32,000 bases of DNA from Nitrosomonas europaea (GCF_900167395.1 NZ_FUWK01000019.1:14797-46796); one strand, 5' to 3'; positions 2,517 through 32,000 are shown, counted from the stretch's first letter. The notes: generated by a model from the sequence alone, not told the origin. Made by a program: numbers and translations.

Positions 2517-4349
2517 TTGAGTTCGACAATAGCCAAGTTGGGCGTTCCGCCAGTACAAAAAAGTAATTCCCTGTCTTCCAGAATAGATGTCGTTGTGCCA
2601 ACGCCTACAGTTAATTCATCGCCTCAGAAAAGAGCGGATTTTACAACTTTGGTGGAGTCGCTCGAGTATGCTGCACAAGGGGAAACTGGGTACAATTTCT
2701 ACGATTCGAGAGGTAATCTAAAATCTGTACTTGCATACAAAGACTTGTGTGCCAACTCGAAAATAATCGCAAGACGGTTATCCGGTCTTGGATTGGCGCG
2801 TAACAGTCGGGTTGCTCTGATTGCCGATACTACTCCGGAGTTCATCGAGCTGTTTTTTGCATGCCGGTTTGCAGGCCTTGTTCCATTTGCGATGCCGGTA
2901 CCTGTAAATCTTGGCAGTCGTGCAATCTATGTACAGCAACTGAGAGGTATGCTTGAGAGCAGTAAGGCAAGCGTTGCAGTCGCCAATCTTGATTTCGTTG
3001 AATTTCTCAATGAGGCGGTTGGCAGTCTGGTAAGTAGCGAACTTAAATGGAGCGGTACACCTGAACAGCTTGATTTGCTGCCGGAAGCTGACGTAGTGTT
3101 TTCCCCCAATACACCAGATGAAACCGCCTATCTGCAATTTACTTCCGGCAGCACTCGTTTGCCAAGAGGGGTGGTCATTACCGAGCGAGCTTTGATGACC
3201 AACTTGCGCGGTATCGTTTGCAATGGTCTTGATGTTCGGCTGGGTGACCGATGCGCTTCATGGCTTCCTTTTTATCATGATATGGGCTTGGTTGGTCTGG
3301 TATTGGCCCCTTTGGCGGCCCAATTATCTGTAGATTATCTGGCAACCCGGGATTTTGCAGTCCGCCCCCTGCAGTGGCTTAAGTTAATCAGTCGTAATCG
3401 CTGCACTATTGCTTTCAGCCAACCATTTGGTCTCAAGTTATGTACGCTGCGTGCCCGTGAATCAGATTTGGCTGATCTGGATTTGAGCTGCTGGCGAGCG
3501 GCCGGTGTCGGTGCTGAGATGATCCGAATGGATACATTGAAAAGCTTTGCAGCTAAATTTGCTGCTGCGGGTTTCGATGAGCGTGCTTTTCTACCATGCT
3601 ACGGGTTGGCTGAATCGACCCTTGCCGTCTCTTTCCCTGATATCAGCCGGGGAGCAAGGAGTTTGCGTGTGGATGCCAGAACCCTGATCGAGAAAAAGAT
3701 TGCGGTGAGAGTCCAGGCAGAGGGTAGAAAATATAATGAATTCGTGAATTGTGGTCGCCCATTACCAGGCCATGAGGTCAGAATAGTCGATGACACGGAT
3801 CATGAGGTCCCTCACATGACGGTGGGAAGTATTCTAGTCAGGGGGGGGAGTGTAATGAACGGGTATTTCAACAACGCAGAAGAGACCGCGAGAGCGATCA
3901 GACCGGATGGTTGGTTGGATACGGGTGATATTGGCTTTCTGTTCGAGGATGATTTATATATTACAGGCCGGCGAACGGATGTCATTATCGTCAATGGTAG
4001 AAATATACGAGCTCAGGATGTGGAAGAGCTGGCTGAACAACAGCCGGAAGTAAGGGCACGTGAAGCTTCTGCATTTGGAATCAGTAATGAGGATGGTTCG
4101 ACATCGGTTGTGCTGGTTGTTGAATGCAGACTCGCATCGGCAGTAGACCGGCAATCGCTTATCAATAGACTTCAGCAGATGGTATATATGGCATTCGGGG
4201 TAAGCTGTCTGGTTGAGTTAGTACCGCCGCATACATTGCCCCGGACATCTTCAGGAAAGTTGTCACGCTTTGCAGCACGTCAGGGATTCCTGCGGCGCGC
4301 AAATCTGGAACAGCCCACTGCAGCAACGACTATTCATACCGCTGGCTGA
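2517..4349 (+). CDS. fatty acyl-AMP ligase / acyl-ACP synthetase (adenylate-forming family)
   Basis: AMP-binding core YLQFTSGSTRLPRGVVIT, plus WLDTGDIGF and the C-terminal SSGKLSR lysine motif. Apparent TTG start with AGGGGAAG just upstream. No in-frame ATG exists before conserved sequence. Confidence 0.8.
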   Translation: MSSTIAKLGVPPVQKSNSLSSRIDVVVPTPTVNSSPQKRADFTTLVESLEYAAQGETGYNFYDSRGNLKSVLAYKDLCANSKIIARRLSGLGLARNSRVALIADTTPEFIELFFACRFAGLVPFAMPVPVNLGSRAIYVQQLRGMLESSKASVAVANLDFVEFLNEAVGSLVSSELKWSGTPEQLDLLPEADVVFSPNTPDETAYLQFTSGSTRLPRGVVITERALMTNLRGIVCNGLDVRLGDRCASWLPFYHDMGLVGLVLAPLAAQLSVDYLATRDFAVRPLQWLKLISRNRCTIAFSQPFGLKLCTLRARESDLADLDLSCWRAAGVGAEMIRMDTLKSFAAKFAAAGFDERAFLPCYGLAESTLAVSFPDISRGARSLRVDARTLIEKKIAVRVQAEGRKYNEFVNCGRPLPGHEVRIVDDTDHEVPHMTVGSILVRGGSVMNGYFNNAEETARAIRPDGWLDTGDIGFLFEDDLYITGRRTDVIIVNGRNIRAQDVEELAEQQPEVRAREASAFGISNEDGSTSVVLVVECRLASAVDRQSLINRLQQMVYMAFGVSCLVELVPPHTLPRTSSGKLSRFAARQGFLRRANLEQPTAATTIHTAG

Positions 4350-4427
4350 TAACATAGTTTCCATCGGTAAGGCCAGATCTTCGCACGAGAAGGAGATGGA
4401 AGTTCCTTCTCATGTTCAGTACGCTTC

Positions 4428-5348
4428 ATGTTTAGAACTGTCGCATTAACGGGCGCCACAGGGTTTATCGGCCGAGTTCTTATCGCCAAGCTGGCAGCGT
4501 CCGGATGGAAGGTTCGTGCGTTGGCCAGGCGAGTACCTTTCAGACAGGATCTTCCACTCGTAGAATGGATTTGTGGAGATATGAATTGTGACAGTGTATT
4601 GTGTGACCTCGTTTCTGGTACCGAAGCGGTTATACACTGTGCAGGAGCAATCAGAGGAAAATCCTGGGATGATTTTTCCCGAACCAACGTGACTGGAACA
4701 AGAAATATATTAAGAGCTGCTTCCGGAGCACCTTCCTGTTCAAGATTCCTATTTATTTCTTCACTGGCTGCGCGTGAACCCCATCTCTCCTGGTATGCAC
4801 GGAGTAAATTCGAGGCTGAGCAGCTGATCCCGGGATTCTCCGGACTGGCATCGACTGTATTCAGGCCGGCAGCGGTTTACGGTCTGGGTGACAAAGCGAT
4901 GCAGCCATTTTTTCAGGCGATGCGCTATGGTATTCTCCTCGTGCCGGGAGATCCTGGTAACCGTTTCGGCCTGATACATGTGGACGATATGGTTGCTGCC
5001 ATTCATAACTGGCTCGAGGCCGGGCAGCCTGTGAAGGGTACTTATGAAATAGATGATGGAACATCAGGCGGATATGACTATACGTCCATCGCTGCGCTTG
5101 CTGAACAAGTTCTGAGCAGGCCGGTGCATTGTCTCCAGATACCTTTGGGCGGTATACGTATGCTAGCCCGTTTTAATTTATGGCTGGCGCATCTCCTGAA
5201 TTATGCTCCGATACTGACACCGGGCAAAGTGATGGAATTTCAGCATCCAGACTGGACGTGCGATATTTCTTCTCTGAAGAGAGAACTGGCTGGCTGGTCT
5301 CCGGTAACTAAACTGGAAACGGTGTTGCCCCTGCTTGTCAGAATGTAA
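4428..5348 (+). CDS. NAD(P)-dependent epimerase/dehydratase-family SDR (CerR-like ketoreductase candidate)
   Basis: Rossmann motif LTGATGFIG at the N-terminus and catalytic YxxxK (YARSK). 306 aa. It lies between the ligase and the ACP/Spt-like genes on the same strand. Confidence 0.75.
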   Translation: MFRTVALTGATGFIGRVLIAKLAASGWKVRALARRVPFRQDLPLVEWICGDMNCDSVLCDLVSGTEAVIHCAGAIRGKSWDDFSRTNVTGTRNILRAASGAPSCSRFLFISSLAAREPHLSWYARSKFEAEQLIPGFSGLASTVFRPAAVYGLGDKAMQPFFQAMRYGILLVPGDPGNRFGLIHVDDMVAAIHNWLEAGQPVKGTYEIDDGTSGGYDYTSIAALAEQVLSRPVHCLQIPLGGIRMLARFNLWLAHLLNYAPILTPGKVMEFQHPDWTCDISSLKRELAGWSPVTKLETVLPLLVRM

Positions 5349-5492
5349 CGGATATTTATTCTTGAAGCATTCCAAATGTTCGTCGACAATATATTGCTTT
5401 CGCGGGTATCACTTCTGTTTTGATACCGGGTATTTTCATATTCCCTGATCCGGGAATGATTTGTCGATATGAACTGTTCAGGGATTGATCTC

Positions 5493-5750
5493 ATGTCTGA
5501 AGTAACTCAAGAGCAAATTACAGCACTGCTTTGCCAGCGCCTGGCAAATTTTACGGAGATTGAAACGGAAGTATCTCCGGAAACGAACCTCATCACGCAT
5601 TTAGCGATTGATTCGGTCAAACTGTTGAATCTAGTGATGGAAATCGAGGATCAGTTTGATATATCCGTTCCACTGAACACACTCGTAGATGTTCTGACGG
5701 TACAGGACCTCGCCAATCTGATCTACAAAATAAAATCATTATCACAATGA
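5493..5750 (+). CDS. dedicated acyl carrier protein
   Basis: 85 aa with the phosphopantetheine attachment motif LAIDSVKLLNLVMEIEDQF. ATG 5493 is preferred over 5469 because of AGGGA about 9 nt upstream and typical ACP length. Its stop overlaps the next gene's start (ATGA at 5747-5750). Confidence 0.8.
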   Translation: MSEVTQEQITALLCQRLANFTEIETEVSPETNLITHLAIDSVKLLNLVMEIEDQFDISVPLNTLVDVLTVQDLANLIYKIKSLSQ

Positions 5751-6931
5751 GTCTGCTGGAAAAACTTGATGCAGCCGCAGCGGCAAGGAAAGCACAATTA
5801 CCCGAAGGTATTGGGGCTTTTGGCATTCCTATAGAAGAATCCTACTCGGCAACCGAAGCAAGAATCGGCAAACGTCGTGTATTGATGCTGGGAACCAACA
5901 ATTACCTCGGGCTCAGTTTCGCACCAGAATGCAGAGAAGCCGCTCATCAGGCCATTGATCAGGAAGGTACCGGTACCACCGGTTCGCGCATGGCCAATGG
6001 CAATTACTATGGTCATCGAGCACTGGAGCGTGAGTTTGCAGAATTTTATAAATATCGTGAATGTATTGTTTTTACAACAGGTTATCAGGCTAATTTAGGA
6101 ACGATTTCTGGATTGGTAGGGGCGGGTGATATCGTGCTGATCGACGGGGATGCCCATGCCAGTATTTATGATGGCTGTATTTTGAGTGGGGCGGATATCA
6201 TTCGCTTCCGGCATAACGATCCGGCTGATCTTGAAAAACGGCTTCGTCGGTTGGGTGATCGCAGTCGAAATACACTGATCATTATCGAGGGTATTTACAG
6301 CATGCTAGGAGATCAGGCTCCTTTGGCTGAGATTGTGCAAATAAAAAATACCTATCAGAGCACTTTACTGCTTGATGAAGCTCATTCACTCGGTGTTCTG
6401 GGAGAAACCGGTCAGGGGTTAGTGGAGAAAACCGGGATGAATGATGAGATCGACTTCATAACTGGAACTTTCAGTAAGAGTTTATGTGGTATCGGTGGTT
6501 TTTGTGTCAGCAATCACCCTCAGCTTGACCAGCTCCGGTATGTAAGCCATCCCTATATATTCACTGCTTCTCCTTCACCGGCAACTATTGCTTCCACACG
6601 TGCTGCTTTGAAACTGTTGCAAGAGGGGCGTTTATTACGTGAACGTTTGTGGCAGAATGCTCATCGGCTTTATTCCAGCCTTGAAAAGAGCGGATATCGT
6701 CTCGGTCCGCAACCCGGCCCCATCGTGGCCATCTTGCTTGATAATCCCAGGCAGGCACTTACACTGTGGAATGGACTGATGGAGCATGATATTTATGTGA
6801 ATCTGGTATTGCCCCCTGCTGCACCGGAAGGAAAGTCACTGGTGCGTTGTAGCATCAATGCAGCCCATACGACTGAACAGATTGATCAGGTGTGTGATGT
6901 TTTTTCTAAACTGCATCCTATCGTAGCGTAA
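5747..6931 (+). CDS. spt: alpha-oxoamine synthase, serine palmitoyltransferase-like (PLP-dependent)
   Basis: 394 aa with DEAHSLG and the PLP-lysine motif GTFSKSL. It is translationally coupled to a dedicated ACP and follows an acyl-AMP ligase. That context favours Spt over BioF or Kbl. Confidence 0.75.
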   Translation: MSLLEKLDAAAAARKAQLPEGIGAFGIPIEESYSATEARIGKRRVLMLGTNNYLGLSFAPECREAAHQAIDQEGTGTTGSRMANGNYYGHRALEREFAEFYKYRECIVFTTGYQANLGTISGLVGAGDIVLIDGDAHASIYDGCILSGADIIRFRHNDPADLEKRLRRLGDRSRNTLIIIEGIYSMLGDQAPLAEIVQIKNTYQSTLLLDEAHSLGVLGETGQGLVEKTGMNDEIDFITGTFSKSLCGIGGFCVSNHPQLDQLRYVSHPYIFTASPSPATIASTRAALKLLQEGRLLRERLWQNAHRLYSSLEKSGYRLGPQPGPIVAILLDNPRQALTLWNGLMEHDIYVNLVLPPAAPEGKSLVRCSINAAHTTEQIDQVCDVFSKLHPIVA

Positions 6932-7955: not shown

Positions 7956-8750
7956 ATGCCAGTATTAGCCTGGATCATTTTTGCCAGCCTAGCCAGTGGT
8001 TTACTGAGTATTGGACTGGCAGCACTATTTGCCCTGAATGTCCACAGTAATAAGTGGATTTCTGTATTAATTTCCTACGCGATCGGCGCACTTCTTGGTG
8101 CAGCATTTCTGAATGCATTGCCTGAGGCACTTGAGCTCACAGAGTCTCCCAAGCAACTGACGTTGATCCTGCTGCTTGGTATTCTTATTTTCTTTATTCT
8201 GGAAAAGCTTTTGTTATGGCGCCATTGTCATTTATCGGAATGTGAGGCGCATGAACCCGCTATACAGATAAAGTCATCAGATGTCCACGATCATGGTCGC
8301 AGTGGCATGATGATCGTGTTGGGTGACACCTTTCATAATTTTGTAGATGGTATCCTGATTGCAACGGCTTTTATGGCGGATATTCAACTCGGAATCGTTA
8401 CGGCCATTGCCATTACTGCACACGAAATTCCGCAGGAGGCAGGAGATTTCATCATTTTGCTCAATTCGGGTTTTACCCGGGCGCGTGCCCTCTGGCTCAA
8501 TCTGTTATCAGGTGCGGCGACACTGTTTGGCGGGTTGCTGGGTTATTTCATGCTATACCAGCTGGATCACATGATAGCGCCCATACTCGCTATTGCTGCG
8601 GCAAGCATGATATACGTAGCGATGTCCGATCTGATCCCCAGTCTGCATAAACGGCCGGAAATCAGAGCGACCATTCAGCAGGTCACACTCATCATCTTGG
8701 GAATCAGTACGATATGGCTGATAGGGTTGTTCTTTGGTCATAACCATTGA
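7956..8750 (+). CDS. ZIP-family divalent metal (zinc) transporter
   Basis: Multi-pass membrane protein with a His/Cys-rich loop (HCHLSECEAHEP...HDHGRSG) and the ZIP signature AITAHEIPQEAGDF. Confidence 0.85.
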   Translation: MPVLAWIIFASLASGLLSIGLAALFALNVHSNKWISVLISYAIGALLGAAFLNALPEALELTESPKQLTLILLLGILIFFILEKLLLWRHCHLSECEAHEPAIQIKSSDVHDHGRSGMMIVLGDTFHNFVDGILIATAFMADIQLGIVTAIAITAHEIPQEAGDFIILLNSGFTRARALWLNLLSGAATLFGGLLGYFMLYQLDHMIAPILAIAAASMIYVAMSDLIPSLHKRPEIRATIQQVTLIILGISTIWLIGLFFGHNH

Positions 8751-11382
8751 ACCTGACAATCTCAGGTGAATATTGCCTGGTTCTTGCATCGGCTGGCGCT
8801 GGTTGTGGGTTGAAGTTGCCACGATATCCTGCAGCCACCCTGTAATAAAGTGTCCGCAATAAAACGCCATCGTGTCGATAGATGGAGCGAGAATGTATCT
8901 TTCCCAGATTGATTAACCCGTTCTCAAAATTTCCCGTTGCATTACTGGATTCCAATGCCTGCTGTTTCATCCCGATCAGTAGTATCGGTTGATCAGAAGG
9001 AGGTTCGACACGATTCCAGAAGCTGTACATGGCGGCGTGTTGACCAAACAGGTTGCGTGACCGGATATCCAGGGCAGGCGTGTCCTTATAAAATGCAAGT
9101 GCACTGGCGGTCGACCACTTACTCATTCCGATCACGATTGGCATTTCTCCCGTTGTTTGCCTGATTTCATCAGCAATTTTCTCGACTTCTGCTGTAGCTT
9201 CTTTCCAGAAATAATGCTCGCTCAGGAACTGGTAAGGTAATCCTGGTATTCCCAGTGTGACGTAATGCAGGATGAAGGCATAAGTCAGTAATGACAGGAC
9301 GATCATCGGTTGCCAGGCAGCACGAAGTCGCGCAGAGAGGCCCATGGGCACATCATTCTGGCCGATCATCCAGGCCATGGTAGGTATCAGTGCCAGCCAG
9401 AGGGGGCTGGTCCAGTGAAAACGCAGAGGATCGAAAGTGCTGATTGCCAGAAAAACCAGTAAGGGAACCCCGGTGAATATGCCGATGAAGAGATATTTTC
9501 GGGGAGCCTGACAGTAACTCAGGGAAATGGATCGTAACGCAAATACAGCAGCAATCAGTCCAACCGGGGTAAGTACGGTTGCAATCTGGAGTATCAATAG
9601 ATGTGTGGCAAACGTATGTTGTGTATTCCCGACTCTGCCAGTCTGGAACAGGAAGGAAGCCCAGTCATTTTCCATGTTCCAGATAATTACCGGACTGAAC
9701 AGGATCAGTGCAATCAATATAGCGAGATAAGGGTGAGGACGGAGCAACCAACGGCGCGCAACAGGATCCAGGACAGCATAAATCAATGCGGCGATGCCAA
9801 GCAGACCAAGCGTATATTTGGATAAAATCCCCAGCCCGAAAGCAATGCCGACTCCAAGCCATGCCTGGCTCTGATTGGCAAGCAAGGCGCGTTCCATGTA
9901 ATAGAGTGTGGCAGCCCAGGCTGCAATCAGTGGAGCATCCGGTGTCATTGCCAGCCCTGTTGCAAAACCGAATGGTACGATGGCAAACAGCAGTACCGAA
10001 CGCATGGCAGTGGGTTTGTCGTAAAGGTTACGCGCAAGCGCGAATACATAAGCCATTGCAATCAATCCACACAGGAAAGCACCGATTCTGACTCCGAACT
10101 CATTATGGCCAGCCAGCGTGGTTCCCAGCCAGATCAACCAGGCAACCATCGGGGGGTGATCGAAAAAGCTCAGATCTATGTGTTGTGCATACTGCCAGTA
10201 ATAGGCTTCATCAGGTATCAGTTGCGCTACATCCATGTAGGCCAGGCGTAACAGGATGACAAAACAGACGATCCCCACAGAGGCAACGCGCCACCGTGTG
10301 TCAGTGGAAACGGGGGGCTCTGTCCGAGGGAATACATAAAAAGCAGAGCCGAGGTAGTTCACCATTGCTGTTGTCAGGATGGCAGGGAAAATTGCCCATT
10401 CAGCAGATATACCCCAGGTATAGACCAGCCAGGCCAGGATAGCGCCTCTCAGAAGCAGTGCAAATACACCAACTGTCAGGAAACGGATGAATTGCTGCCA
10501 ATGCAGATGACCCGCGTGATGCAGCCGGAACGACCATTTTGAATTTATGGTGTAGTTGAAGCTGGCGGCAGCAATGAAACTGGAAATATGTGCCGAAGCC
10601 AGGCTGGCTCCGTGCCCGGTCATCCACTGAAAAATCAGGACGTCGACGAAGACTCCCAGAAATCCGACAATGGCAAAGCGGCTGGCTGTGTGGAATGAGA
10701 CGGTTCCTCCCGCCAGGGTGATGAGTTGCAGTAAATAAACAAGATGGTGGGTGAGGGAAAGTTTGGAATTGCCATGCAGCCGATCGCGGAAACTGATGGG
10801 TATTTCCTTTACACGCAACCGGCCTTGTCCGGTCATCAGCAATTCCAGCAGGATCTTGTAGCCGCGAGCATTTTTTGTGATGTTTCCGATCAATTCCCGC
10901 CGGAAAGCAAAAAAACCGGAAGTTGCATCATTTACATCGCAAATGATGCGTGCGAGCCAGCCACCGGCTCGTGACAGCCAGAGCCGGTAAAAGGGCCAGC
11001 CAACAGTATTGCCGCCAGCGATATACCGACTGCCGATGGTGATGTCATGGGTACCATCCAGTATCGGCTGGATCAGTGCGGCCAGTTTGTCCGGCGGGTG
11101 GCTCAGATCAGCATCCATGACGGCAATGACTTCATACCTGGCGACCGCTGTTCCATCGAGAATGGAAGCGGTCAGATCAGGTTGTGCGCGCCTCTCGATC
11201 AGACGCACGTTATGCGTGTTTTGCCATTGTCTGACTTTGTCAGGCGTGCCGTCAGTAGAACCATCGTCCACGATAATGACTTCGAACTGGCTTCCCAGAG
11301 TATCAAGAGAAAAAATGCCTGATAACAGCGGATCGATATTTTCAGCTTCGTTCAGGGTGGGAATAATGAGTGAAAATGACAT
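8704..11382 (-). CDS. tripartite fusion glycosyltransferase: GT2 polyprenyl-phosphate sugar synthase + GtrA-like domain + GT-C (ArnT/PMT, GT39/83-like) transferase
   Basis: The N-terminus (LIIPTLNEAENI...VIIVDDGSTDGT...MDADLSHPP) is DPM1/ArnC/GtrB-like. The middle (FAIVGFLGVFVDVLIFQW...NYTINSKWSF...MVNYLGSAFYVF) is GtrA-like. The C-terminal ~530 aa are polytopic with a DEAYYW loop motif typical of ArnT/PMT GT-C enzymes. 892 aa, ATG at 11382. Confidence 0.8.
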   Translation of the reverse strand: MSFSLIIPTLNEAENIDPLLSGIFSLDTLGSQFEVIIVDDGSTDGTPDKVRQWQNTHNVRLIERRAQPDLTASILDGTAVARYEVIAVMDADLSHPPDKLAALIQPILDGTHDITIGSRYIAGGNTVGWPFYRLWLSRAGGWLARIICDVNDATSGFFAFRRELIGNITKNARGYKILLELLMTGQGRLRVKEIPISFRDRLHGNSKLSLTHHLVYLLQLITLAGGTVSFHTASRFAIVGFLGVFVDVLIFQWMTGHGASLASAHISSFIAAASFNYTINSKWSFRLHHAGHLHWQQFIRFLTVGVFALLLRGAILAWLVYTWGISAEWAIFPAILTTAMVNYLGSAFYVFPRTEPPVSTDTRWRVASVGIVCFVILLRLAYMDVAQLIPDEAYYWQYAQHIDLSFFDHPPMVAWLIWLGTTLAGHNEFGVRIGAFLCGLIAMAYVFALARNLYDKPTAMRSVLLFAIVPFGFATGLAMTPDAPLIAAWAATLYYMERALLANQSQAWLGVGIAFGLGILSKYTLGLLGIAALIYAVLDPVARRWLLRPHPYLAILIALILFSPVIIWNMENDWASFLFQTGRVGNTQHTFATHLLILQIATVLTPVGLIAAVFALRSISLSYCQAPRKYLFIGIFTGVPLLVFLAISTFDPLRFHWTSPLWLALIPTMAWMIGQNDVPMGLSARLRAAWQPMIVLSLLTYAFILHYVTLGIPGLPYQFLSEHYFWKEATAEVEKIADEIRQTTGEMPIVIGMSKWSTASALAFYKDTPALDIRSRNLFGQHAAMYSFWNRVEPPSDQPILLIGMKQQALESSNATGNFENGLINLGKIHSRSIYRHDGVLLRTLYYRVAAGYRGNFNPQPAPADARTRQYSPEIVRFNGYDQRTTLSAISY

Positions 11383-18345: not shown

Positions 18346-18852
18346 TCAATGTGATTGCTTCAGTGACGCCAACACGGTAAAAGGATGTTCTTTTACGGCG
18401 GCTTCATGTATTCCGGTTCCAGTTGACGGGTGACACCCGGCGGTATCTTCATGACGAGGGGAAACCGGCAGGCTCAGAATCACTTCATCCTCTATCAAAG
18501 CCAGAATATCGAGTTCATTCGAAGCATAAATCGCATCCACAAACATATCTTCGTCATAACGTGACAACTCATCCTCGTTTCGGGCCAGAAGCAGTGCTGT
18601 CTTCACATCGAGTGTGTATTCGATCTTTTCCAGACAGCGTTGGCAACTCAAGTCGATGATTCCGTTGACTGACATTTTCAGCAGCGGCCTGTCACGTTCA
18701 TCCAGTAATCCGGTGACCAGATAAGCCAATTCTCCCGCTGAGTTTGTCAGATAATCTCTTAGACGCTCAAGATTGAGCAGGGGGACATTTCCCTGAAGTG
18801 ATTTGCCACTGCGGACAAAATCCAGTGCATCTATGACAAGTTGGTCGAACAT
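18346..18852 (-). CDS. yceD: YceD (DUF177) family 23S rRNA accumulation protein
   Basis: 168 aa acidic protein with a CQRCLE motif, immediately upstream of rpmF as in the conserved yceD-rpmF-plsX operon. Confidence 0.85.
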   Translation of the reverse strand: MFDQLVIDALDFVRSGKSLQGNVPLLNLERLRDYLTNSAGELAYLVTGLLDERDRPLLKMSVNGIIDLSCQRCLEKIEYTLDVKTALLLARNEDELSRYDEDMFVDAIYASNELDILALIEDEVILSLPVSPRHEDTAGCHPSTGTGIHEAAVKEHPFTVLASLKQSH

Positions 18853-18920
18853 AAGGCGCGCATGTTATATTTTTTATAATAAAGTGTCAAAATCACAAAT
18901 CGGCATATTACTATAATATT

Positions 18921-19517
18921 TTGAAAAATCGCACGAATTACCCTCCGCTTATACTGGGTTCCAGCTCGGTTTACCGGTGTGAACTGCTGCAGCGTCTGCA
19001 GATACCTTTTGAAACCGCAAGTCCGGCCGTCGACGAGTTTGCTTTGCCTGGGGAAGCGCCTGGGACAACTGCGTTGCGTTTGGCAAAAGAAAAGGCACAT
19101 GCGGTAGCAAAGCTGTTTCCTGATGCACTTATCATCACAGCAGATCAGGTTGCAGCCCTGGGGGAAATACAACTGGGCAAACCATTGAGTCATGAAAATG
19201 CTGTCCAACAACTCCGTTTGATGCGTGGCAGGGAAGTCATCTTTCATTCGGCACTATGCCTGTTCAACAGTCGTACAACCCGTCTGCAGGCGCGTGTCAT
19301 ACCGTGTTCGGTAAAGTATCGCGAGTTGAGCGACAGTCAGATCGAGCACTATCTTGCAAAGGAACAACCTTACCATTGTGCCGGCAGTGCAAAAGCGGAA
19401 GGTCTGGGGATCGCTCTGATTGAACGCATTACCGGGGAAGATCCTAACGCGCTGATCGGACTGCCGCTGATAGCATTGGTGGAGATGTTGATGGAGGAGG
19501 AGGTGGAACTGTTTTAG
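18921..19517 (+). CDS. Maf-like nucleoside triphosphate pyrophosphatase (YceF type by position)
   Basis: [10 protein letters not shown] near the N-terminus and [14 protein letters not shown]. It is divergent from yceD as in E. coli. Apparent TTG start; no upstream in-frame ATG. Confidence 0.85.
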
Positions 19518-19603
19518 CGTTGCCAATCCTCTGTCCAAATGCTGAACCATTTTCCCTATTTTTCCATCTGGCTGTGGAATGGCCGGAATCCGTATTTTCA
19601 TGT

Positions 19604-23099: not shown

Positions 23100-26369
<3,270 letters not shown>

Positions 26370-26373
26370 GGAT

Positions 26374-26395
26374 TTCGGCCGCGTCGGAATTTTTT
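26374..26395 (+). terminator. possible intrinsic terminator after czcA
   Basis: An imperfect GC-containing hairpin (TTCGGC-CGC-GTCGGAA, one bulge) is followed by TTTTTT at 26390-26395. It begins 5 nt after the czcA stop. Confidence 0.35.
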
Positions 26396-26663
26396 CCACT
26401 TTCTGCCGTTGTGCAATGGCCGAATGAGCTGAGTCAGGGATAATCGGGAATTGTAGTGGTACAGAGCGTTCTTTTCCCGGCGAGCGGGCAGATGCTATGA
26501 GACAATGAATGTCGAATAATTTTACACTTTTGTGGATTACTGATCAGCCATGGCCGGGAGTGGTTTTTATCTTCATGTTTTTTATGGTATTAAATTATTC
26601 TTTACGGTATGGTACGAAATATGCATGTTAAAAGTACAACAGCAGACTTTATTGGCTTCCTGT

Positions 26664-26672
26664 TGTTATACT
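26664..26672 (+). promoter_or_regulatory. candidate extended -10 promoter element (TGtTATACT) for the four-gene cassette
   Basis: It lies in the AT-rich intergenic region about 50-60 nt upstream of the GTG starts at 26719 and 26728. No convincing -35 element was found. Confidence 0.25.
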
Positions 26673-26727
26673 GGCGATATTTTATTTCCCTAAGTTTTGT
26701 ATGTTTTTTACATGAAAGGTGATTAAC

Positions 26728-27153
26728 GTGACAGAAGAAAAAATTCAGGGACAAACAGCTGCTGCTCCTCAGCCGGCGCGCAGGCGATTGCTCAAGAGCA
26801 CGGTCGCCATTCCGGTCATCATGACGCTGCATAGTGGCGCTGCGCTGGCGCGGACGAGTAATCTCGCTGGGCCAGTTGAAGTTGGTGACGCAGTCAAATT
26901 TAATACTGGTGAACGAGAACAGCTTGTGTGTGTTAATTCGGGAGATGGGCCATTGGATGGTGGTCCAACTTATGACTTGGGGAAAACTCCTACTGCCGAT
27001 TTTGCTCCACTTTATGATTTAGATGGTAATCCAATGGATTTAGAGGGGCAGGCAGCAGCGTGCCGCGAGGGGGGGGCAGGTATTTTAATTTCGGCTGCAG
27101 CTTACACTTCTCTCCAAGGTAATGGGTTTCTTGGTAATCTTCCTCCTCTTTGA
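26728..27153 (+). CDS. small exported protein with twin-arginine (Tat)-like signal; candidate substrate of the downstream cassette
   Basis: The signal reads ARRRLLKSTVAIPVIMTLHSGAALA|RTSN: an RRxLLK motif, a hydrophobic core and an AxA site. The mature part is about 105 aa, rich in Gly/Asp/Pro/Ala, with 2 Cys. Start is GTG 26728 (AAAGGTGA upstream) or GTG 26719. The stop overlaps the next start. Confidence 0.6.
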   Translation: MTEEKIQGQTAAAPQPARRRLLKSTVAIPVIMTLHSGAALARTSNLAGPVEVGDAVKFNTGEREQLVCVNSGDGPLDGGPTYDLGKTPTADFAPLYDLDGNPMDLEGQAAACREGGAGILISAAAYTSLQGNGFLGNLPPL

Positions 27154-27470
27154 TATGGGTGAATAATTTAATCTCTGGATTTGATGGTATTTATTGGTAT
27201 CCAAACAGCTCGTTACTACGTATAGAAGAATGGGATGGAGAGTTTACCGTTTTCCAGCCAGAATCCGGTAAGACCCATTTCCTGAATGAGATGGGGTTGC
27301 GAATCCTCACGGTACTTGATCGATCTCCCGCTACGTTGGAAGCAATCTGCCAAGAATTATCAGCGTATTTTTCATTGCAGCTTGATGCGCAATTTCCCGG
27401 ACAAATCATCAGGACCTTGCAGCGCTACGAAGCACTTGGTTTGATCACACGGGTAAAAGAAAACGAGTGA
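27150..27470 (+). CDS. PqqD-family peptide chaperone (RiPP recognition element-like)
   Basis: About 100 aa with the PqqD pattern: EFTVFQPESGKTHFLNEMGLRILTVLDRSPATLEAICQELSAYF...LQRYEALGLI. Non-ATG start, TTG 27150 or GTG 27159. It overlaps both neighbouring genes by 4 nt. Confidence 0.75.
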   Translation: MIWVNNLISGFDGIYWYPNSSLLRIEEWDGEFTVFQPESGKTHFLNEMGLRILTVLDRSPATLEAICQELSAYFSLQLDAQFPGQIIRTLQRYEALGLITRVKENE

Positions 27471-28375
27471 AGGTTGAGCAACTTTCGCTGGATATATTCC
27501 ATACATTGATTACCGGGTCGGGTCTGCGTGTAAAAGCGGGGCCATTCAATTTATCTATCCAGACCTGCTTACCCTCACTCATCGACCAGCTCTACCGGAT
27601 GTATTCCCACTATTCGCTGGTGGATGAAACAGAAATTGCTGAATTTCATGTTCGAATAATTCCTAAACATTCGATCAGACGCCCGCTTGCCCAGTTCATT
27701 CAGTTCCAAATCGATGGCCGATCTCCGTTTCCGCCTGTGCCGGCAAAGCAGGCGTTGGCAACACTGGAATGGGGCATCAATCTGGCGATTGCCATGCGTA
27801 TCAATCATCTGTTGCTGTTTCATTCTGCTGCCGTGGAGCGCAATGGCCATGTACTGTTGCTGCCAGCCTGGCCAGGCAGCGGCAAGACAACCTTGTGCAC
27901 GGCACTGATTCACCGTGGCTATCGGCTGTTTTCCGATGAATTTGGGTTGATGGATCCGCAGTCGGGTGAATTTTTTCCGCTACCCCGGTTGATGCCGCTC
28001 AAAAATCAATCGATCGGGGTGATTCGTGATTATCTGCCGGAAGCAGTGCTGGGGCCGGAAATACCGGGTACATTGAAAGGAACGGTTGCCCATGTGCGCC
28101 CGCCGCAGGAAAGTATCGAACGGGCGGATGAAACTGCGAAACCACGCTGGATCGTTTTTCCGAAATGGTCAGCGGGTGCTGCTTTGCGGTTGGAATCTTT
28201 GCCGCAATCCGAGGCGTTTCTGTTGCTGGCAACCAATGCATTCAATTACGAAGTGCTGGGAGAAACCGCATTTGATGCGGTAACCAGTCTGGTTCGTAAC
28301 TGTGAGTGCCGCAAACTGGTTTATTCCGATTTCGATAGCGCTTTGGCCGCGCTGGATGAACTGACCGATGGCTAA
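27467..28375 (+). CDS. HPr kinase-like P-loop kinase (HprK-related)
   Basis: The HSAAVERNGHVLLLPAWPGSGKTTLCTALIHRGYRLFSDEF arrangement (active-site His region plus Walker A GSGKTT) resembles the HPrK/P C-terminal domain. GTG start in a GTGA overlap with the PqqD-like gene. Confidence 0.78.
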   Translation: MKVEQLSLDIFHTLITGSGLRVKAGPFNLSIQTCLPSLIDQLYRMYSHYSLVDETEIAEFHVRIIPKHSIRRPLAQFIQFQIDGRSPFPPVPAKQALATLEWGINLAIAMRINHLLLFHSAAVERNGHVLLLPAWPGSGKTTLCTALIHRGYRLFSDEFGLMDPQSGEFFPLPRLMPLKNQSIGVIRDYLPEAVLGPEIPGTLKGTVAHVRPPQESIERADETAKPRWIVFPKWSAGAALRLESLPQSEAFLLLATNAFNYEVLGETAFDAVTSLVRNCECRKLVYSDFDSALAALDELTDG

Positions 28376-29480
28376 GGTTGATACCAGGCCAGATCATCAC
28401 CGGTTGCTGCTGGAAACGATCGTTCAGCCTGCTTCCCTGACCGGATACGACAATCGGCAATGGGAATTACTACTGCGGCTGGCGAGACGGGCGCAGCTAT
28501 CCGGCTACCTTGCAGCCAAACTGGAAAAAGACGGGTTGCTGGATAGTATTCCGGCCCGTGCTTCCAATCTGTTGCGCTCTAGCTTAATTCAGGCAAGAAA
28601 ACAGCAGCAATCGGTCAGCTGGGAGCTGAACCGGGTGATGTGGGCGCTGGATGGCCAGGAGATCCCGGTTATCGTCCTCAAAGGAATGGCATATCTGTTG
28701 CAGGATCTGCCGAATGCTCCGGGGCGCATGTTTGCTGACCTGGATTTGCTGGTGTCGAAAGAGAATCTGGGTCAGATCGAATCCAGCCTGCTGAAGAAAG
28801 GCTGGCAGCATCATGCACTGACCGATTACGATGAGCGTTACTATCGTGAGTGGAGTCATGAAATTCCCGCATTGGTGCATCCTGAACGCAGTGTTGAAGT
28901 GGATGTTCACCATACACTTTCTTCACCGTTGGGCAAGCTGAAGATCGATCCACTGCCATTCCGGGAAGCAGCAGTCAAAGTGAAAGATGCAGGTATTTAT
29001 GTGTTGAGCCCGGAAGATATGGTGCTGCATTGTGCAGTCAACCTGTTTCAGAACAACGAGCTGGCCGACGATCTGCGGCATCTGCTCGATTTTCACGAGA
29101 TGATGCTGTTTTTCAGCAGTCAGCAGCCGTTTTTTCAACAAAAGCTGATCGAGCGCGCTAATCAGCTCGGATTAGGAAATCCGCTGTTTTACAGTTTGTA
29201 TTTCAGTCGCTTATTGCTGCGATCAGCGATTCCGGATGATCTGGAAAAACAGCTCGATCGGCAACCCGGTTGGCTGGCGCGGCGTGTCATGCATCATTGC
29301 GTACCGCTGGCATTACTGCCGCAGCATCCTGATCACCCTTCCAGGATGGCGGGATACGCGCGTATGTGGCTTTACTGGCGCAGCCACTGGCTGCGCATGC
29401 CGCTTTACCGTCTGGTACCGCACCTGGCCTATAAGTTTTATCTGTCCGTGTTTCCGGCCAGGGCTGAAACATCAAAGTAG
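28368..29480 (+). CDS. uncharacterised nucleotidyltransferase family protein (NTP_transf_5-like)
   Basis: VIVLKGMAYLLQDLPNAPGRMFADLDLLVSKENL...LLKKGWQ and the later VEVDVHHTL match my memory of the PF14907 pattern (KG..Y....R..D-D-L-V ... D-H). The ATG overlaps the kinase gene by 8 nt. Confidence 0.72.
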   Translation: MAKVDTRPDHHRLLLETIVQPASLTGYDNRQWELLLRLARRAQLSGYLAAKLEKDGLLDSIPARASNLLRSSLIQARKQQQSVSWELNRVMWALDGQEIPVIVLKGMAYLLQDLPNAPGRMFADLDLLVSKENLGQIESSLLKKGWQHHALTDYDERYYREWSHEIPALVHPERSVEVDVHHTLSSPLGKLKIDPLPFREAAVKVKDAGIYVLSPEDMVLHCAVNLFQNNELADDLRHLLDFHEMMLFFSSQQPFFQQKLIERANQLGLGNPLFYSLYFSRLLLRSAIPDDLEKQLDRQPGWLARRVMHHCVPLALLPQHPDHPSRMAGYARMWLYWRSHWLRMPLYRLVPHLAYKFYLSVFPARAETSK

Positions 29481-30902
29481 GAATAACGTAGCTAGGCCCA
29501 GGAAAATAAAGAAACCGCCACTATCAGTGACGGCAGTGATCAGGACACTGGAGCCGAGGGCAGGATCACGCCCGAACTTCTTGCGTGTCAGCGGGATAAG
29601 TACGCCGACGAATGCAGCCAGCAGCAGATTCAGCAGCATGGCGAGTGCCATGACTAGACCCAGTTGCATGTTACGGTAGATGGCGTAGGTGAATAGCCCT
29701 ACTACACTTCCCCATACGATGCCATTGACGATACCGACACCGATTTCCTTGCTGATCAGTTTCAAGGTGCTGTCCTGATTCACCTGTCCCAGCGCAATGG
29801 CCCGAACGATCATGGTGATGGTCTGATTACCGGAATTTCCACCTACCCCCGCTACAATGGGCATCAGCGCAGCAAGTGCAACCAGTTTCTCGATCGAGTT
29901 CTCGAATAATCCGATCACGCGAGAAGCAATGAATGCCGTGACCAGGTTGATCGCTAGCCAGGCCCAGCGGTTGCGTACACTTTTCCAGATGGGAGCAAAC
30001 AGATCTTCTTCTTCGCTCAGACCGGCTTGGCTGCGTGCTTCGAGATCTGCCTTCTCACGCATGAAGTCAATGACTGCGTTGACCGTTACTCGGCCCAGCA
30101 GCTTCCCTTCTGAAGAAATGACGGGGGCGGTTACCAGATCGTACCGTTCAAATGCATGAGTGGCTTGTTCAGCCTTATCGTCTGGAAGAAATTTGACCGT
30201 GTCGCGCGCCATGACTTCCATCACAGTGGCTTCAGGGTCACTTACCAGCAACTGGTTCAACAGCAAGACTCCCTGCAGTTGTTCAGTACGGTCGACCACG
30301 AACAGCTGATCAGTATGATCCGGCAATTCGCCAAGCCGGCGTAAGTAACGCAGCACGACTTCAATGCGCACATCCCCGCGTACGGTAATGACATCGAAAT
30401 CCATCAGTGCGCCTACCGCATCCTCGGAGTAGGACATAGCGGCACGCAGCTGCTCACGTTCTTCCATAGGCAATGCCTGGAAGACGTCTTCCATGACATC
30501 GCTGGGTAAATCAGGGGCCAGATCGGCAATTTCATCCGCGTCCAGTTGTTCTGCCGCAGCAACCAGCTCCTCGCTGTCCATGTCCTCGATCAGCGTTTGG
30601 CGAACGGCATCGGAGACTTCGAGCAGTACCTCACCATCCTGCTCGGCCTTGACCAGCCCCCAGATGATCAGCCGATCTTCGAGAGGCAAAGCTTCAAGGA
30701 TATGGGCGATATCCGCCGGGTGAAGCTTGTCCAGTGCCTGTCGCAGATTGGAGAGATTCTGTTTTTGTATGATCGATTCGATCAGTTCCGGCTCGGGCGT
30801 ATCCTGCAGACGGACGAAACCTTCGACCAGTTTGTATTTTTGCAGCAGATAGGTGACTTTCTGCAGCTTGTCTTCCAGGTTTTCGTGATTTTCTTCAGTC
30901 AT
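29472..30902 (-). CDS. mgtE: magnesium transporter MgtE
   Basis: MgtE_N region (LHPADIAHILEALPLEDRLIIWGLV), tandem CBS-like segment and C-terminal 5-TM domain (GNSGNQTITMIVRAIALG). 476 aa. Confidence 0.93.
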   Translation of the reverse strand: MTEENHENLEDKLQKVTYLLQKYKLVEGFVRLQDTPEPELIESIIQKQNLSNLRQALDKLHPADIAHILEALPLEDRLIIWGLVKAEQDGEVLLEVSDAVRQTLIEDMDSEELVAAAEQLDADEIADLAPDLPSDVMEDVFQALPMEEREQLRAAMSYSEDAVGALMDFDVITVRGDVRIEVVLRYLRRLGELPDHTDQLFVVDRTEQLQGVLLLNQLLVSDPEATVMEVMARDTVKFLPDDKAEQATHAFERYDLVTAPVISSEGKLLGRVTVNAVIDFMREKADLEARSQAGLSEEEDLFAPIWKSVRNRWAWLAINLVTAFIASRVIGLFENSIEKLVALAALMPIVAGVGGNSGNQTITMIVRAIALGQVNQDSTLKLISKEIGVGIVNGIVWGSVVGLFTYAIYRNMQLGLVMALAMLLNLLLAAFVGVLIPLTRKKFGRDPALGSSVLITAVTDSGGFFIFLGLATLFLL

Positions 30903-31404: not shown

Positions 31405-31683
31405 GTGAATATCGTACCTGCACCGGTTGATTCACGTGCTGTATTGTCTGGATACGTGCGTGCCCGGGTCGTTACACCGGAATTGCTGCTTTCACTGGCT
31501 GCTGTGGCCGGCAGCATCGGTCAGCAGGTCAGGGAACATGGTTCATTCGCCTGCCTGCCAGCGACTGTGATGGCCAACGTGTGTAACGGTATGTATCTTG
31601 CCTCGGAGACGATCCGTCATATCGAGAAAGAACCTTCACTGCATTTCGATGCGGACACTCGGGAAAATCTTAGGGCCTGTTAA
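31405..31683 (+). CDS. hypothetical ORF (92 aa) whose 3' end runs into the IS element; possibly a remnant of a disrupted gene
   Basis: This rests only on an ORF with a GTG start. No motif was recognised. The last ~14 nt overlap the transposase stop region. Confidence 0.2.
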   Translation: MNIVPAPVDSRAVLSGYVRARVVTPELLLSLAAVAGSIGQQVREHGSFACLPATVMANVCNGMYLASETIRHIEKEPSLHFDADTRENLRAC

Positions 31684-32000
31684 CACTAATTAGGTGATCT
31701 ACGATCAGAGCGAAATGGATGAAGAATCGGAAAACTGAATCCAACTTGTCAAAGCGAGAGAAGATTCTTCTGAAACCCTTCAGGCGACGAAACAGCCGTT
31801 CCACCTCATTACGCTTTTTGTACATTTCAACATCGTACTCCCAGGGCGACACACGATTTGCTTTTGGTGGCACCACTGGAATCATCCCCAGATCAAGTAC
31901 CAACTGTCGGGTTTCATCCCCTTCGTACGCTTTATCCATGATCACGTGAGTGTCAGAGAATCCCTTATTCTCCAGGGTTTTCAGCAACTTTCGTCCTTCT
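31655..32000 (-). mobile_element. IS5-family insertion sequence, partial (the inner boundary is approximate)
   Basis: The transposase stop is at 31670, and in this IS family the terminal inverted repeat usually abuts or overlaps the stop. The other end is outside the window, so the IR cannot be confirmed. Confidence 0.55.
31670..32000 (-). CDS. IS5-family (IS427/IS1031-like) DDE transposase, C-terminal part (5' end outside the window)
   Basis: The frame is open to the window end. MDKAYEGDETRQLV...VPPKANR...YKKRNEVERLFRRLKGFRRIFSRFDK contains the IS5-family Y-x2-R-x3-E-x6-K signature around the catalytic Glu. Confidence 0.85.
   Translation of the reverse strand, partial: EGRKLLKTLENKGFSDTHVIMDKAYEGDETRQLVLDLGMIPVVPPKANRVSPWEYDVEMYKKRNEVERLFRRLKGFRRIFSRFDKLDSVFRFFIHFALIVDHLISVNRP

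Follow-up and report, generated by a model that had tools for sequence, protein, structure and literature searches.

A PqqD-family protein and a kinase have been paired by NCBIfam/TIGRFAMs as the HPr-rel-A system (TIGR04353 and TIGR04352), as the first-pass annotation of the present DNA correctly stated. The named families are uncharacterised: the name is an annotation label only, with no substrate or function, and a literature search found no paper on the system and no biochemistry for any member. In lasso peptide pathways, HprK-type kinases phosphorylate a serine of the precursor ahead of leader removal (PMC6993621, PMC9266682). The pseudomycoidin cluster combines a B1-like RRE, the kinase PsmK and PsmN; the last of these, an uncharacterised NTP transferase by annotation, adds a hexose to the phosphoserine and depends on D134 and D136 (PMC6993621), whereas the paeninodin cluster has an RRE and the kinase PadeK without an NTP-transferase gene. 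Another pair of HprK-like and PqqD-like proteins is ScmC and ScmD of SynChlorMet. Exosortase (XrtA) systems are linked to a regulon of PrsK, PrsR, PrsT and RpoN through the PEP-CTERM box, a 17-nt motif that ends in TTTACA and is followed 32–92 nt on by a sigma-54 motif (Haft 2006, PMC1569441), and PEP-CTERM genes under RpoN control drive the formation of flocs (PMC9850573).

A cassette that resembles each of these systems in part lies at positions 26664–29480 of the window, which is the whole 32,000-nt stretch of Nitrosomonas europaea DNA analysed (GCF_900167395.1 NZ_FUWK01000019.1:14797-46796). Four plus-strand ORFs at 26719/26728–27153 (ORF1), 27150–27470 (ORF2), 27467–28375 (ORF3) and 28368–29480 (ORF4) overlap by 4, 4 and 8 nt, and this layout, reported in the first-pass annotation, was reproduced. 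ORF1 almost certainly begins at GTG 26728 (141 aa) and not at GTG 26719 (144 aa), because the former aligns with the ATG of its relatives and lies downstream of a GAAAGG Shine-Dalgarno sequence at 26714–26719. The overlap between ORF1 and ORF2 presupposes a TTG start at 27150, for which GTG 27159 is the alternative.

The ORF2 and ORF3 products match the adjacent HPr-rel-A families over their full length and above the curated cut-offs. ORF2 is a PqqD-family RRE ('HPr-rel-A system PqqD family peptide chaperone'), scoring 80.9 bits against TIGR04353 (cut-off 35) and 24.9 bits against PF05402 (cut-off 23.4). ORF3 is an HprK-related kinase A (TIGR04352, 349.6 bits, cut-off 200, model positions 2–280 of 280), a P-loop kinase of Pfam PF27840, the 'ScmC' family. 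ORF4 is an NTP_transf_5 protein of the nucleotidyltransferase fold (PF14907, 206.8 bits, cut-off 31.2, model positions 2–248 of 249) with a D124-x-D126 motif. The three enzyme and chaperone assignments made earlier from inspection are upheld by these profiles. PF07475, the HPrK C-terminal domain that had been proposed for ORF3, gave no match at E up to 1, and the HprK/P profile TIGR00679 reached 11.2 bits (E = 0.16) against a cut-off of 240. Foldseek searches with the AlphaFold2 model of ORF3 (pLDDT 94) retrieved HprK/P 3tqf (E = 3e-4) and ATP-PEPCK (E = 5e-6); judging from this model, the relation of ORF3 to HprK lies at the level of the PEPCK/HprK fold. H119, K140, D157 and E158 of ORF3, which we take to be the HprK/P catalytic His, the Walker-A Lys and the acidic pair, are invariant in 51 sequences. 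In lasso kinases, the counterpart of this set is the H-K-D-D motif (PMC9266682). ORF4 is likened to PsmN by its NTP-transferase annotation and DxD motif, not by the PF14907 profile. The SynChlorMet models TIGR04249 and TIGR04248 gave weak matches, with scores far below the cut-offs; the cassette pairs an HprK-like with a PqqD-like protein as SynChlorMet does, but has no radical-SAM partners.

ORF1 (26728–27153, plus strand) belongs to an unannotated family: Pfam and NCBIfam profile scans gave no matching model, and a PDB fold search with its predicted structure found no relative. The family comprises 469 clusters among 1.84 billion representatives, the best 150 of these 469 being 54–257 aa long. 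A variable N-terminus is followed by a conserved twin-arginine block and a predicted folded domain of about 95 aa, for which AlphaFold2 gives a pLDDT of 85–92 at residues 50–144 and low values at residues 1–45. The block RRRLLKSTVAIPVIMTLHSGAALA (26779–26850) exceeds every part of the mature domain in conservation across 81 sequences, each of RR, L, P, TL, SG(A) and A being kept in 90% or more of them. By inspection it reads as a signal peptide (RRRLLK-STVAIPVIMTL-HSGAALA) with the twin arginine, a short h-region and an AxA site, so that the earlier Tat-signal call stands on inspection but is below threshold in Tat-signal HMMs, an observation that counts against the substrate model set out below. 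Every weak HMM match of the family is nevertheless to a Tat-signal family: among 16 members, PF10518 matches 3 (best E = 0.16), TIGR01409 2, TIGR02811 4 and AmiA 2 (best E = 0.0019). The mature part has two cysteines that are invariant in the 81-sequence alignment. Near the C-terminus, the block G-[IL]-L-[IV]-S-x-x-A-x-x-S-[LF] has Ser at each of its two positions in 77 of the 81 sequences and sits 0–14 residues before the end; the codons of the candidate phospho-acceptors Ser125...Ser131 (144-aa numbering) span 27091–27111. Both serines map to a predicted strand-helix element inside the folded domain, whereas in lasso precursors the serine is C-terminal and disordered, and this too counts against the substrate model. 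The C-terminus GILISAAAYTSLQGNGFLGNLPPL, ending in NLPPL, carries no PEP-CTERM sorting domain (PEP motif, transmembrane helix and basic tail).

Strict co-conservation of the four genes is demonstrated by sequence comparison of 80 related genome loci and 6 metagenome places with Pfam labels. An ORF1 homologue lies directly upstream of the PqqD gene, and the ORF1, PqqD, kinase and NTP_transf_5 genes are contiguous on the same strand, in 79 of 79 informative beta- and gammaproteobacterial loci, many of which are from Nitrosomonas and therefore do not count as independent events. Over the whole set of 80, the PqqD gene is adjacent in 78 loci and the NTP_transf_5 gene in 77. In the reciprocal test, the trio came directly after the ORF1-family protein in all 6 places that were reached with the family's own profile. 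The cassette is found in Nitrosomonadaceae, Accumulibacter, Dechloromonas, Methylococcaceae, Chromatiaceae, Steroidobacteraceae and Lautropia, with kinase identities from 92% down to 48%, and on this comparative evidence it is a self-contained four-gene operon conserved in Nitrosomonas and many other Proteobacteria. Whether a homologue of the small ORF always precedes the trio had been posed as a check, and in these loci it does. Because of this adjacency in both directions, the cassette is not an orphan and ORF1 is the obvious candidate substrate. The description of the locus as an orphan set of tailoring enzymes without a RiPP core is therefore misleading: ORF1 is conserved, and no further conserved small ORF was found in the cassette. 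Like RRE-dependent RiPP-type systems, the cassette has a PqqD-like RRE and an adjacent, co-conserved, gene-encoded precursor, the latter as a candidate only. The HPr-rel-A entry has no model of the ORF1 family, and the NTP_transf_5 partner and the upstream control described below do not figure in its profile-library output.

The region upstream of the cassette has a conserved two-part element. A sigma-54-type −24/−12 element TGGTACGAAATATGCA (GG-N10-GC) at 26610–26625 on the plus strand was identified by a scan and by an alignment of Nitrosomonas sequences, in which its GG and TGC are invariant. Sites that match at least 8 of 11 specified bases occur on the sense strand of 63 of 80 upstream regions; the antisense strand has them in 5 of the 80, and shuffled sequences in 7.3 of 80 on average. 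At a spacing of 83 nt, it is preceded on the same strand by the activator-type site TGTCGAATAATTTTACA (TGTCG-N6-TTTACA) at 26510–26526, which corresponds to 'motif 1' of the PEP-CTERM box and is a predicted PrsR site. TTTACA is found within 140 nt upstream of the sigma-54 site in 46 of the 63 loci, almost always at 81–87 nt, whereas control hexamers in its place are found in 0–6. Of the 61 copies of the exact 17-mer in 1.31 Mb of loci, 47 lie upstream of ORF1 homologues, and together with a sigma-54 site the 17-mer precedes genuine PEP-CTERM genes in both informative cases (L065, 7543–8223, minus strand; L073, 3775–4548, plus strand). The match to the box was judged on the published description of the motif and not on its logo; the spacer of about 83 nt is longer than the reported mean of 63 nt and within the maximum of 92 nt (PMC1569441). 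The operon also differs from the described regulon in having four genes instead of one and in the missing sorting domain of ORF1. The best explanation of the predicted box is that the cassette belongs to the XrtA/PEP-CTERM regulon controlled by PrsK/PrsR and sigma-54. The first-pass annotation had pointed to a TGnTATACT element in an AT-rich leader ahead of the operon. This extended −10-like element, TGTTATACT (26664–26672, plus strand), is indeed present downstream of the sigma-54 site, but the main conserved control is the sigma-54 site with TGTCG-N6-TTTACA. All 8 aligned close relatives share the TATACT of the −10-like element, but overall no more than 13 of 63 loci have it, the element being invariant in the closest Nitrosomonas clade alone, and a sigma-70 scan found no two-hexamer promoter there. 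It may be a secondary promoter or a 5'-UTR element.

PrsK, PrsT and EpsB_2, which are XrtA/PEP-CTERM genes, adjoin the cassette in about 15 loci from several lineages, genes for exopolysaccharide (EPS) glycosyltransferases and sugar dehydrogenases often do so, and genes for trypsin-like proteases recur beside it. Genes for PEP-CTERM proteins are mostly located elsewhere in the genome. The XrtA/PEP-CTERM exopolysaccharide connection was absent from the first-pass annotation.

We favour the reading, with a probability of about 0.5, that the cassette makes a modified secreted protein within the PEP-CTERM regulon and that ORF1 is the substrate. We infer the course that follows as regards substrate, chemistry, the RRE–signal interaction, export by Tat and physiological role. 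The PqqD-type RRE would bind the twin-arginine block of ORF1 in the cytoplasm and hand ORF1 to the HprK/ScmC-type P-loop kinase, which would phosphorylate one of the two near-invariant C-terminal serines. The NTP_transf_5 enzyme may then extend the phosphate with a hexose, as PsmN does, or with a nucleotide. Once the RRE lets go of the signal, the folded and decorated ORF1 would be exported via Tat and, in the periplasm or the matrix, work alongside exopolysaccharide and PEP-CTERM proteins, perhaps in aggregation or floc formation. We propose that the twin-arginine block doubles as the RRE recognition sequence. A more specific version, possible but offered only tentatively, is that the RRE is a proofreading chaperone of the Tat signal peptide that retains ORF1 until the phospho-linked decoration is installed and then allows export. 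In TorD/DmsD/NapD-type chaperoning, a small cytoplasmic protein holds a twin-arginine signal until cytoplasmic maturation ends. By analogy, the proposed logic would be the same, although the PqqD winged-helix RRE has an unrelated fold, and maturation would be a covalent decoration here whereas it is cofactor insertion there. If true, the exosortase/PEP-CTERM floc-forming system would have in decorated ORF1 a component, or a signal, not recognised before, and RiPP logic would extend to a folded, Tat-exported protein.

The trio may instead modify another target, such as PEP-CTERM proteins, a different secreted protein or a sugar or lipid-linked EPS intermediate, with ORF1 as a merely co-transcribed exported protein of the same regulon. 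The predicted control shared with PEP-CTERM genes and the adjoining glycosyltransferase and dehydrogenase genes would fit such a target, as would the PEPCK-like fold, which also covers small-molecule kinases, and the position of the ORF1 serines in a predicted folded element. However, a PqqD/RRE protein implies a peptide ligand, PEP-CTERM genes mostly sit apart from the cassette, and ORF1 alone shares the phyletic pattern of the trio and a fixed place beside it, with translational coupling in the window; we regard another target as rather unlikely. Less probable still is that ORF1 is a true RiPP-style precursor, whose N-terminal block is a leader and no Tat signal, and whose short C-terminal peptide, once modified, is cut off by proteolysis to serve as an extracellular signal, perhaps the input of PrsK. 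The stimulus of PrsK is unknown (PMC1569441), the Ser block is C-terminal, proteases are at hand beside the cassette, and the leader-like block is conserved beyond usual signal peptides. The same block nevertheless has the full twin-arginine hallmarks (RRxLLK, a short segment of mild hydrophobicity, a basic c-region and AxA) and its weak HMM matches are exclusively to Tat families, while the mature part, a domain predicted with confidence, has two invariant cysteines and no conserved exporter or leader peptidase was found alongside the cassette.

Two further readings carry very little weight. It is highly improbable that the cassette represents an HPr kinase module of the carbon-regulation type, as the weak TIGR00679 similarity might suggest, or a phage-defence or toxin-antitoxin system, in which NTase-fold proteins are common: the HprK/P profiles do not match, PADLOC gave no match for any of the four proteins, and the surroundings are of the EPS/PEP-CTERM kind rather than those of PTS or defence islands. 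The reading of the cassette as the decayed remains of a phosphorylated lasso-peptide cluster, which draws on the co-occurrence of a B1-like RRE, an HprK-type kinase and an NTP-transferase gene in the pseudomycoidin cluster (PMC6993621), is effectively refuted. In related genomes, lasso enzymes do not recur beside the trio; the four genes are intact and conserved over two proteobacterial classes with invariant catalytic residues; and ORF1, at 141 aa with a twin-arginine-type signal, a folded domain, internal serines and a last residue other than Ser, is unlike a lasso precursor. The predicted sigma-54 and PEP-CTERM-box control also sets the cassette apart from lasso modules. Pfam searches of the 20 window ORFs of at least 105 aa outside the cassette found no lasso cyclase, transglutaminase-like (B2) peptidase, radical-SAM enzyme, YcaO or ABC exporter, in agreement with what had been noticed initially. 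Lasso or other RiPP core enzymes do not recur as neighbours in the 80 genome loci or the 6 metagenome places either, and the view of the cassette as a stand-alone system holds.

The immediate setting in the window is as first described. The czcCBA genes lie upstream, mgtE is convergent with its 3' end overlapping ORF4 by 9 nt, and a DDE fragment of the IS5 type is located 2.2 kb from the cassette. This setting is incidental: on sequence comparison, the position between czcA and mgtE reflects synteny and not IS5 insertion, the order czcCBA–cassette–mgtE being conserved genus-wide.

The small protein encoded by ORF1, which carries a twin-arginine-signal-like N-terminus, is the constant companion of the PqqD-like, kinase and nucleotidyltransferase genes of the cassette. 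The four plus-strand ORFs are ORF1 (26728–27153, with an alternative GTG start at 26719), ORF2 (pqqD/RRE, 27150–27470), ORF3 (kinase, 27467–28375) and ORF4 (NTP_transf_5, 28368–29480), and they overlap by 4, 4 and 8 nt as the first-pass annotation stated. Three of its four family assignments, those of ORF2, ORF3 and ORF4, hold at curated profile thresholds, while the HprK C-terminal domain PF07475 was not detected in ORF3. In profile searches, ORF2 scores 80.9 bits against TIGR04353 'HPr-rel-A system PqqD family peptide chaperone' (cut-off 35) and 24.9 bits against PF05402 (cut-off 23.4), ORF3 scores 349.6 bits against TIGR04352 'HprK-related kinase A' (cut-off 200), and ORF4 scores 206.8 bits against PF14907 NTP_transf_5 (cut-off 31.2). 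Because the kinase and PqqD families have already been named by NCBIfam as the 'HPr-rel-A system', catalogued and uncharacterised, the copy in the window is an ordinary member of a catalogued system. The 3' ends of ORF4 and of the convergent minus-strand gene mgtE share 9 nt (29472–29480), and no intergenic terminator separates the two genes.

A scan of a genome collection with the kinase alignment as the query confirmed at least 477 relatives. The analysis used the 80 top-ranking loci, which cover Nitrosomonas, Nitrosospira, Accumulibacter, Dechloromonas, Propionivibrio, Lautropia, Methylococcaceae, Chromatiaceae, Ectothiorhodospiraceae and Steroidobacteraceae. The kinase is flanked by a PqqD homologue in 78 of these loci and by an NTP_transf_5 homologue in 77. 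Homologues of ORF1 are found in 54 loci by single-sequence phmmer and in 79 by an iterated profile, and the single locus without a match begins within the kinase gene. The profile gives 80 matches among 9,936 ORFs, 79 of which lie directly 5' of pqqD on the same strand. The expectation that an ORF1 homologue always precedes the trio of enzyme genes is thus borne out in 79 of 79 informative loci. The sole exception to the adjacency is a second copy further upstream in the Thiorhodococcus drewsii locus L072, where two tandem ORF1-family paralogues (3099–3458 and 4106–4603, plus strand) stand upstream of one PqqD–kinase–nucleotidyltransferase trio; multiple precursors per enzyme set are a RiPP-like trait. 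In the reciprocal test, contig look-ups for three ORF1-family proteins found with the ORF1 profile gave the expected order in six of six places, namely ORF1, an ORF of 87–107 aa, PF27840 'ScmC' and PF14907, the last being cut short in L083, where the contig ends. In the gap between ORF1 and pqqD, no additional small ORF is conserved. Flank clustering shows that the four cassette genes are the only universally conserved ones. Among 1.84 billion representative proteins, the ORF1 family accounts for 469 clusters, of which the best 150 listed are 54–257 aa long; profile searches found no Pfam or NCBIfam model for the family. On this sequence evidence, the ORF1 family appears to be new as an obligate fourth gene and a candidate substrate of the system.

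Near its N-terminus, ORF1 has RRRLLK followed by a short segment of mild hydrophobicity and ALA, and its start is likely to be the GTG at 26728 rather than that at 26719. In an alignment of 81 sequences, the most conserved part is this N-terminal block, RRxLLKG..A..PVILTLxSGAALA. Beyond it, two cysteines are invariant, and a second block, G-[IL]-L-[IV]-S-x-x-A-x-x-S-[LF], is found towards the C-terminus. Both serines of the C-terminal block are present in 77 of the 81 sequences, 0–14 residues before the C-terminus. In the AlphaFold2 model (numbered over 144 aa from the GTG at 26719), residues 1–45 are predicted to be unstructured and residues 50–144 to fold into a small alpha/beta domain (pLDDT 85–92), for which Foldseek finds no PDB relative at E <= 0.001. 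Matches of ORF1 to Tat-signal HMMs are sub-threshold only, and all the weak matches are to Tat-signal families (PF10518, TIGR01409, TIGR02811 and AmiA). In members from Methylococcaceae, Accumulibacter and Chromatiaceae (e.g. L039, L041 and L048), the signal-like block ends in SGALAA(A/S)SCTG, whereas that of the Nitrosomonas clade ends in ALARTSN without a cysteine. The cysteine that immediately follows the AxA-like site in the former clades might represent a lipobox-like variant and imply a lipoprotein form.

The control region of the cassette links it to the PEP-CTERM genes. A sigma-54-type element, TGGTACGAAATATGCA, lies upstream of ORF1 at 26610–26625 (plus strand). Of 80 upstream regions, 63 have a comparable site, defined as GG-N10-GC with at least 8 of 11 matches, on the sense strand, compared with 5 on the antisense strand and a mean of 7.3 in shuffles. 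A further site, TGTCGAATAATTTTACA, lies 83 nt further upstream at 26510–26526 (plus strand). TTTACA occurs within 140 nt 5' of the sigma-54 site in 46 of the 63 loci, nearly always 81–87 nt away, whereas control hexamers give 0–6 in the same test. The 17-mer TGTCG-N6-TTTACA has 61 copies in 1.31 Mb of loci, 47 of them upstream of ORF1 homologues. Proteobacterial PEP-CTERM genes are preceded by a 17-nt motif ending in TTTACA, a 32–92-nt spacer and a sigma-54 motif (Haft et al. 2006, PMC1569441), and the control region of the cassette has exactly this architecture. The exact 17-mer and a sigma-54 site precede both PEP-CTERM genes with intact upstream regions in the compared loci (2/2). A PEP-CTERM box ahead of the cassette operon appears to be new.

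The TGTTATACT element (26664–26672) noticed earlier is genuine; it is invariant within the closest clade, is absent elsewhere and may be a secondary promoter. A sigma-70 scan found no plus-strand promoter upstream of ORF1, terminator-like matches are at chance level only, and Rfam gives no match across 26300–29700. An AT-rich stretch, TTATCTTCATGTTTTTTATGG (26540–26600, plus strand), between the 17-mer and the sigma-54 element contains several columns that are invariant in the Nitrosomonas alignment. IHF-type bending sites are common at sigma-54 promoters, and these columns would fit such a site. A second exact 17-mer, TGTCGATGCTGTTTACA, lies within the czcA coding sequence (24280–24296, plus strand) and is kept in the close Nitrosomonas relatives L001, L002, L004, L006 and L007; it probably reflects coding conservation or chance. 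In the N. eutropha-like clade, an exact plus-strand 17-mer, TGTCGGAATATTTTACA, is located within the pqqD coding sequence, 109 nt 5' of the kinase start (L002 4542; L003, L004 and L006 9892; L009 1596). This site, which the window lacks, may serve internal regulation or be coincidental.

The gene neighbourhood also connects the cassette with the XrtA/PEP-CTERM system, genes of which adjoin it in about 15 non-Nitrosomonas loci. EpsB_2 (TIGR03013, 10 members), PrsT (TIGR02917, 7), PrsK (TIGR02916, 5) and PrsR (TIGR02915, about 7) were found, the representative of each family scoring above its model cut-off. One flank cluster, c19, is not PrsR throughout: about 7 of its 12 members are PrsR-like and the member in L039 is NtrC. 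Because this cluster is mixed, EpsB_2, PrsT and PrsK are the basis for counting XrtA-linked loci. In these loci, the neighbours further include a Sel1/SLT protein, an NDP-sugar dehydrogenase and trypsin-like proteases, and the same neighbour block is seen in metagenome places. Flank clustering shows that the order czcCBA–cassette–mgtE is common to Nitrosomonas loci, which makes the position of the cassette an ancestral one within the genus that has no connection with the IS5 fragment. Recent horizontal insertion beside IS5 is ruled out by this conserved order and by a GC content of the enzyme genes equal to that of the flanks.

The phosphorylated lasso peptide tailoring module is the only characterised precedent for an RRE combined with an HprK-type kinase and an enzyme annotated as an NTP-transferase. 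The kinase of that module phosphorylates a serine of the linear precursor, and PsmN, the NTP-transferase of the pseudomycoidin cluster, attaches one or two hexose units to that phosphoserine and requires D134 and D136 (PMC6993621; PMC9266682). ORF4 carries D124-x-D126. His119, Lys140 (Walker A), Asp157 and Glu158 of ORF3 are invariant in 51 homologues and correspond to the H-K-D-D set, which is reported to be essential in lasso-peptide kinases (PMC9266682). The AlphaFold2 model of ORF3 is of high confidence (pLDDT 94) and matches ATP-dependent PEP carboxykinases at E = 5e-6 and HprK/P 3tqf at E = 3e-4 by Foldseek. PDB sequence searches with ORF3 and ORF4 gave no meaningful match. By analogy with this module, we infer that ORF2 would bind the conserved N-terminal block of ORF1 and recruit ORF3, which would phosphorylate Ser125 or Ser131 of ORF1; ORF4 would then cap the phosphate, and the folded product would exit via Tat. 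The bound RRE would hold ORF1 back from export until its modification is finished. The conservation of the N-terminal block is unusually high for a signal peptide, as expected if the block is read by both the Tat machinery and the RRE. Co-regulation with PEP-CTERM genes would place the ORF1 product in an exopolysaccharide/aggregation programme (PMC9850573).

Other readings of the cassette are less probable than such decoration of ORF1. That the trio has a separate substrate and ORF1 is a co-regulated bystander is unlikely, and still less likely is that the N-terminal block of ORF1 serves only as a leader from which a peptide signal is released. The pattern of conservation excludes a remnant of a lasso cluster. 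The first-pass annotation reported no lasso cyclase, leader peptidase, radical-SAM enzyme, YcaO or ABC exporter, and Pfam indeed detects none among 20 other window ORFs of at least 105 aa that were scanned. PTS-type regulation finds no support, as ORF3 lacks a PF07475 match and reaches TIGR00679 at no better than E = 0.16; neither does a defence system, as PADLOC gives no match for the cassette proteins.

Also apparently new is the model in which an RRE guides the decoration of a secreted protein of the Tat type. In the literature searched, no paper deals with the cassette or the HPr-rel-A names or links PEP-CTERM/exosortase with HprK and PqqD, and matches to ScmC/SynChlorMet are acronyms with other meanings. 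Comments by the NCBIfam curators on the HPr-rel-A families may already mention a PEP-CTERM association. If the model is true, RRE-guided tailoring would no longer stop at short peptides but would reach a folded protein that is secreted, and it would be coupled to Tat export. A functionless annotation present in at least 477 genomes gains a concrete candidate substrate and regulon, and the cassette would be a new testable player in the PEP-CTERM/exosortase system, which controls how wastewater bacteria, among them cassette-carrying ammonia oxidisers and Accumulibacter, form flocs and aggregates.

The scanned ORFs in the rest of the window are housekeeping genes: the plsX-fabHDG-fabF region, yceG, a ZIP transporter, a GT2-PMT fusion, czcCBA, mgtE and an IS5-type fragment. 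The IS5-family DDE transposase ORF near the window end (31670–31987, minus strand) is not conserved in related loci and, being only 105 aa long, is a fragment or split gene. Two adjacent minus-strand ORFs of 138 and 115 aa between yceD and czcC (18831–19247 and 19254–19601) have no Pfam match. The GT2-PMT fusion (8704–11382, minus strand; 892 aa) joins a GT2 glycosyltransferase domain to a GtrA-like and a PMT_2 (ArnT/dolichyl-phosphate-mannose transferase-like) domain. A possible small cluster for lipid or amino-lipid biosynthesis consists of three plus-strand genes at 2517–6931, whose products are a 610-aa acyl-activating enzyme of the AMP-binding type, a 306-aa SDR of the NAD-dependent epimerase/reductase type and a 394-aa protein resembling class I/II aminotransferases or alpha-oxoamine synthases.
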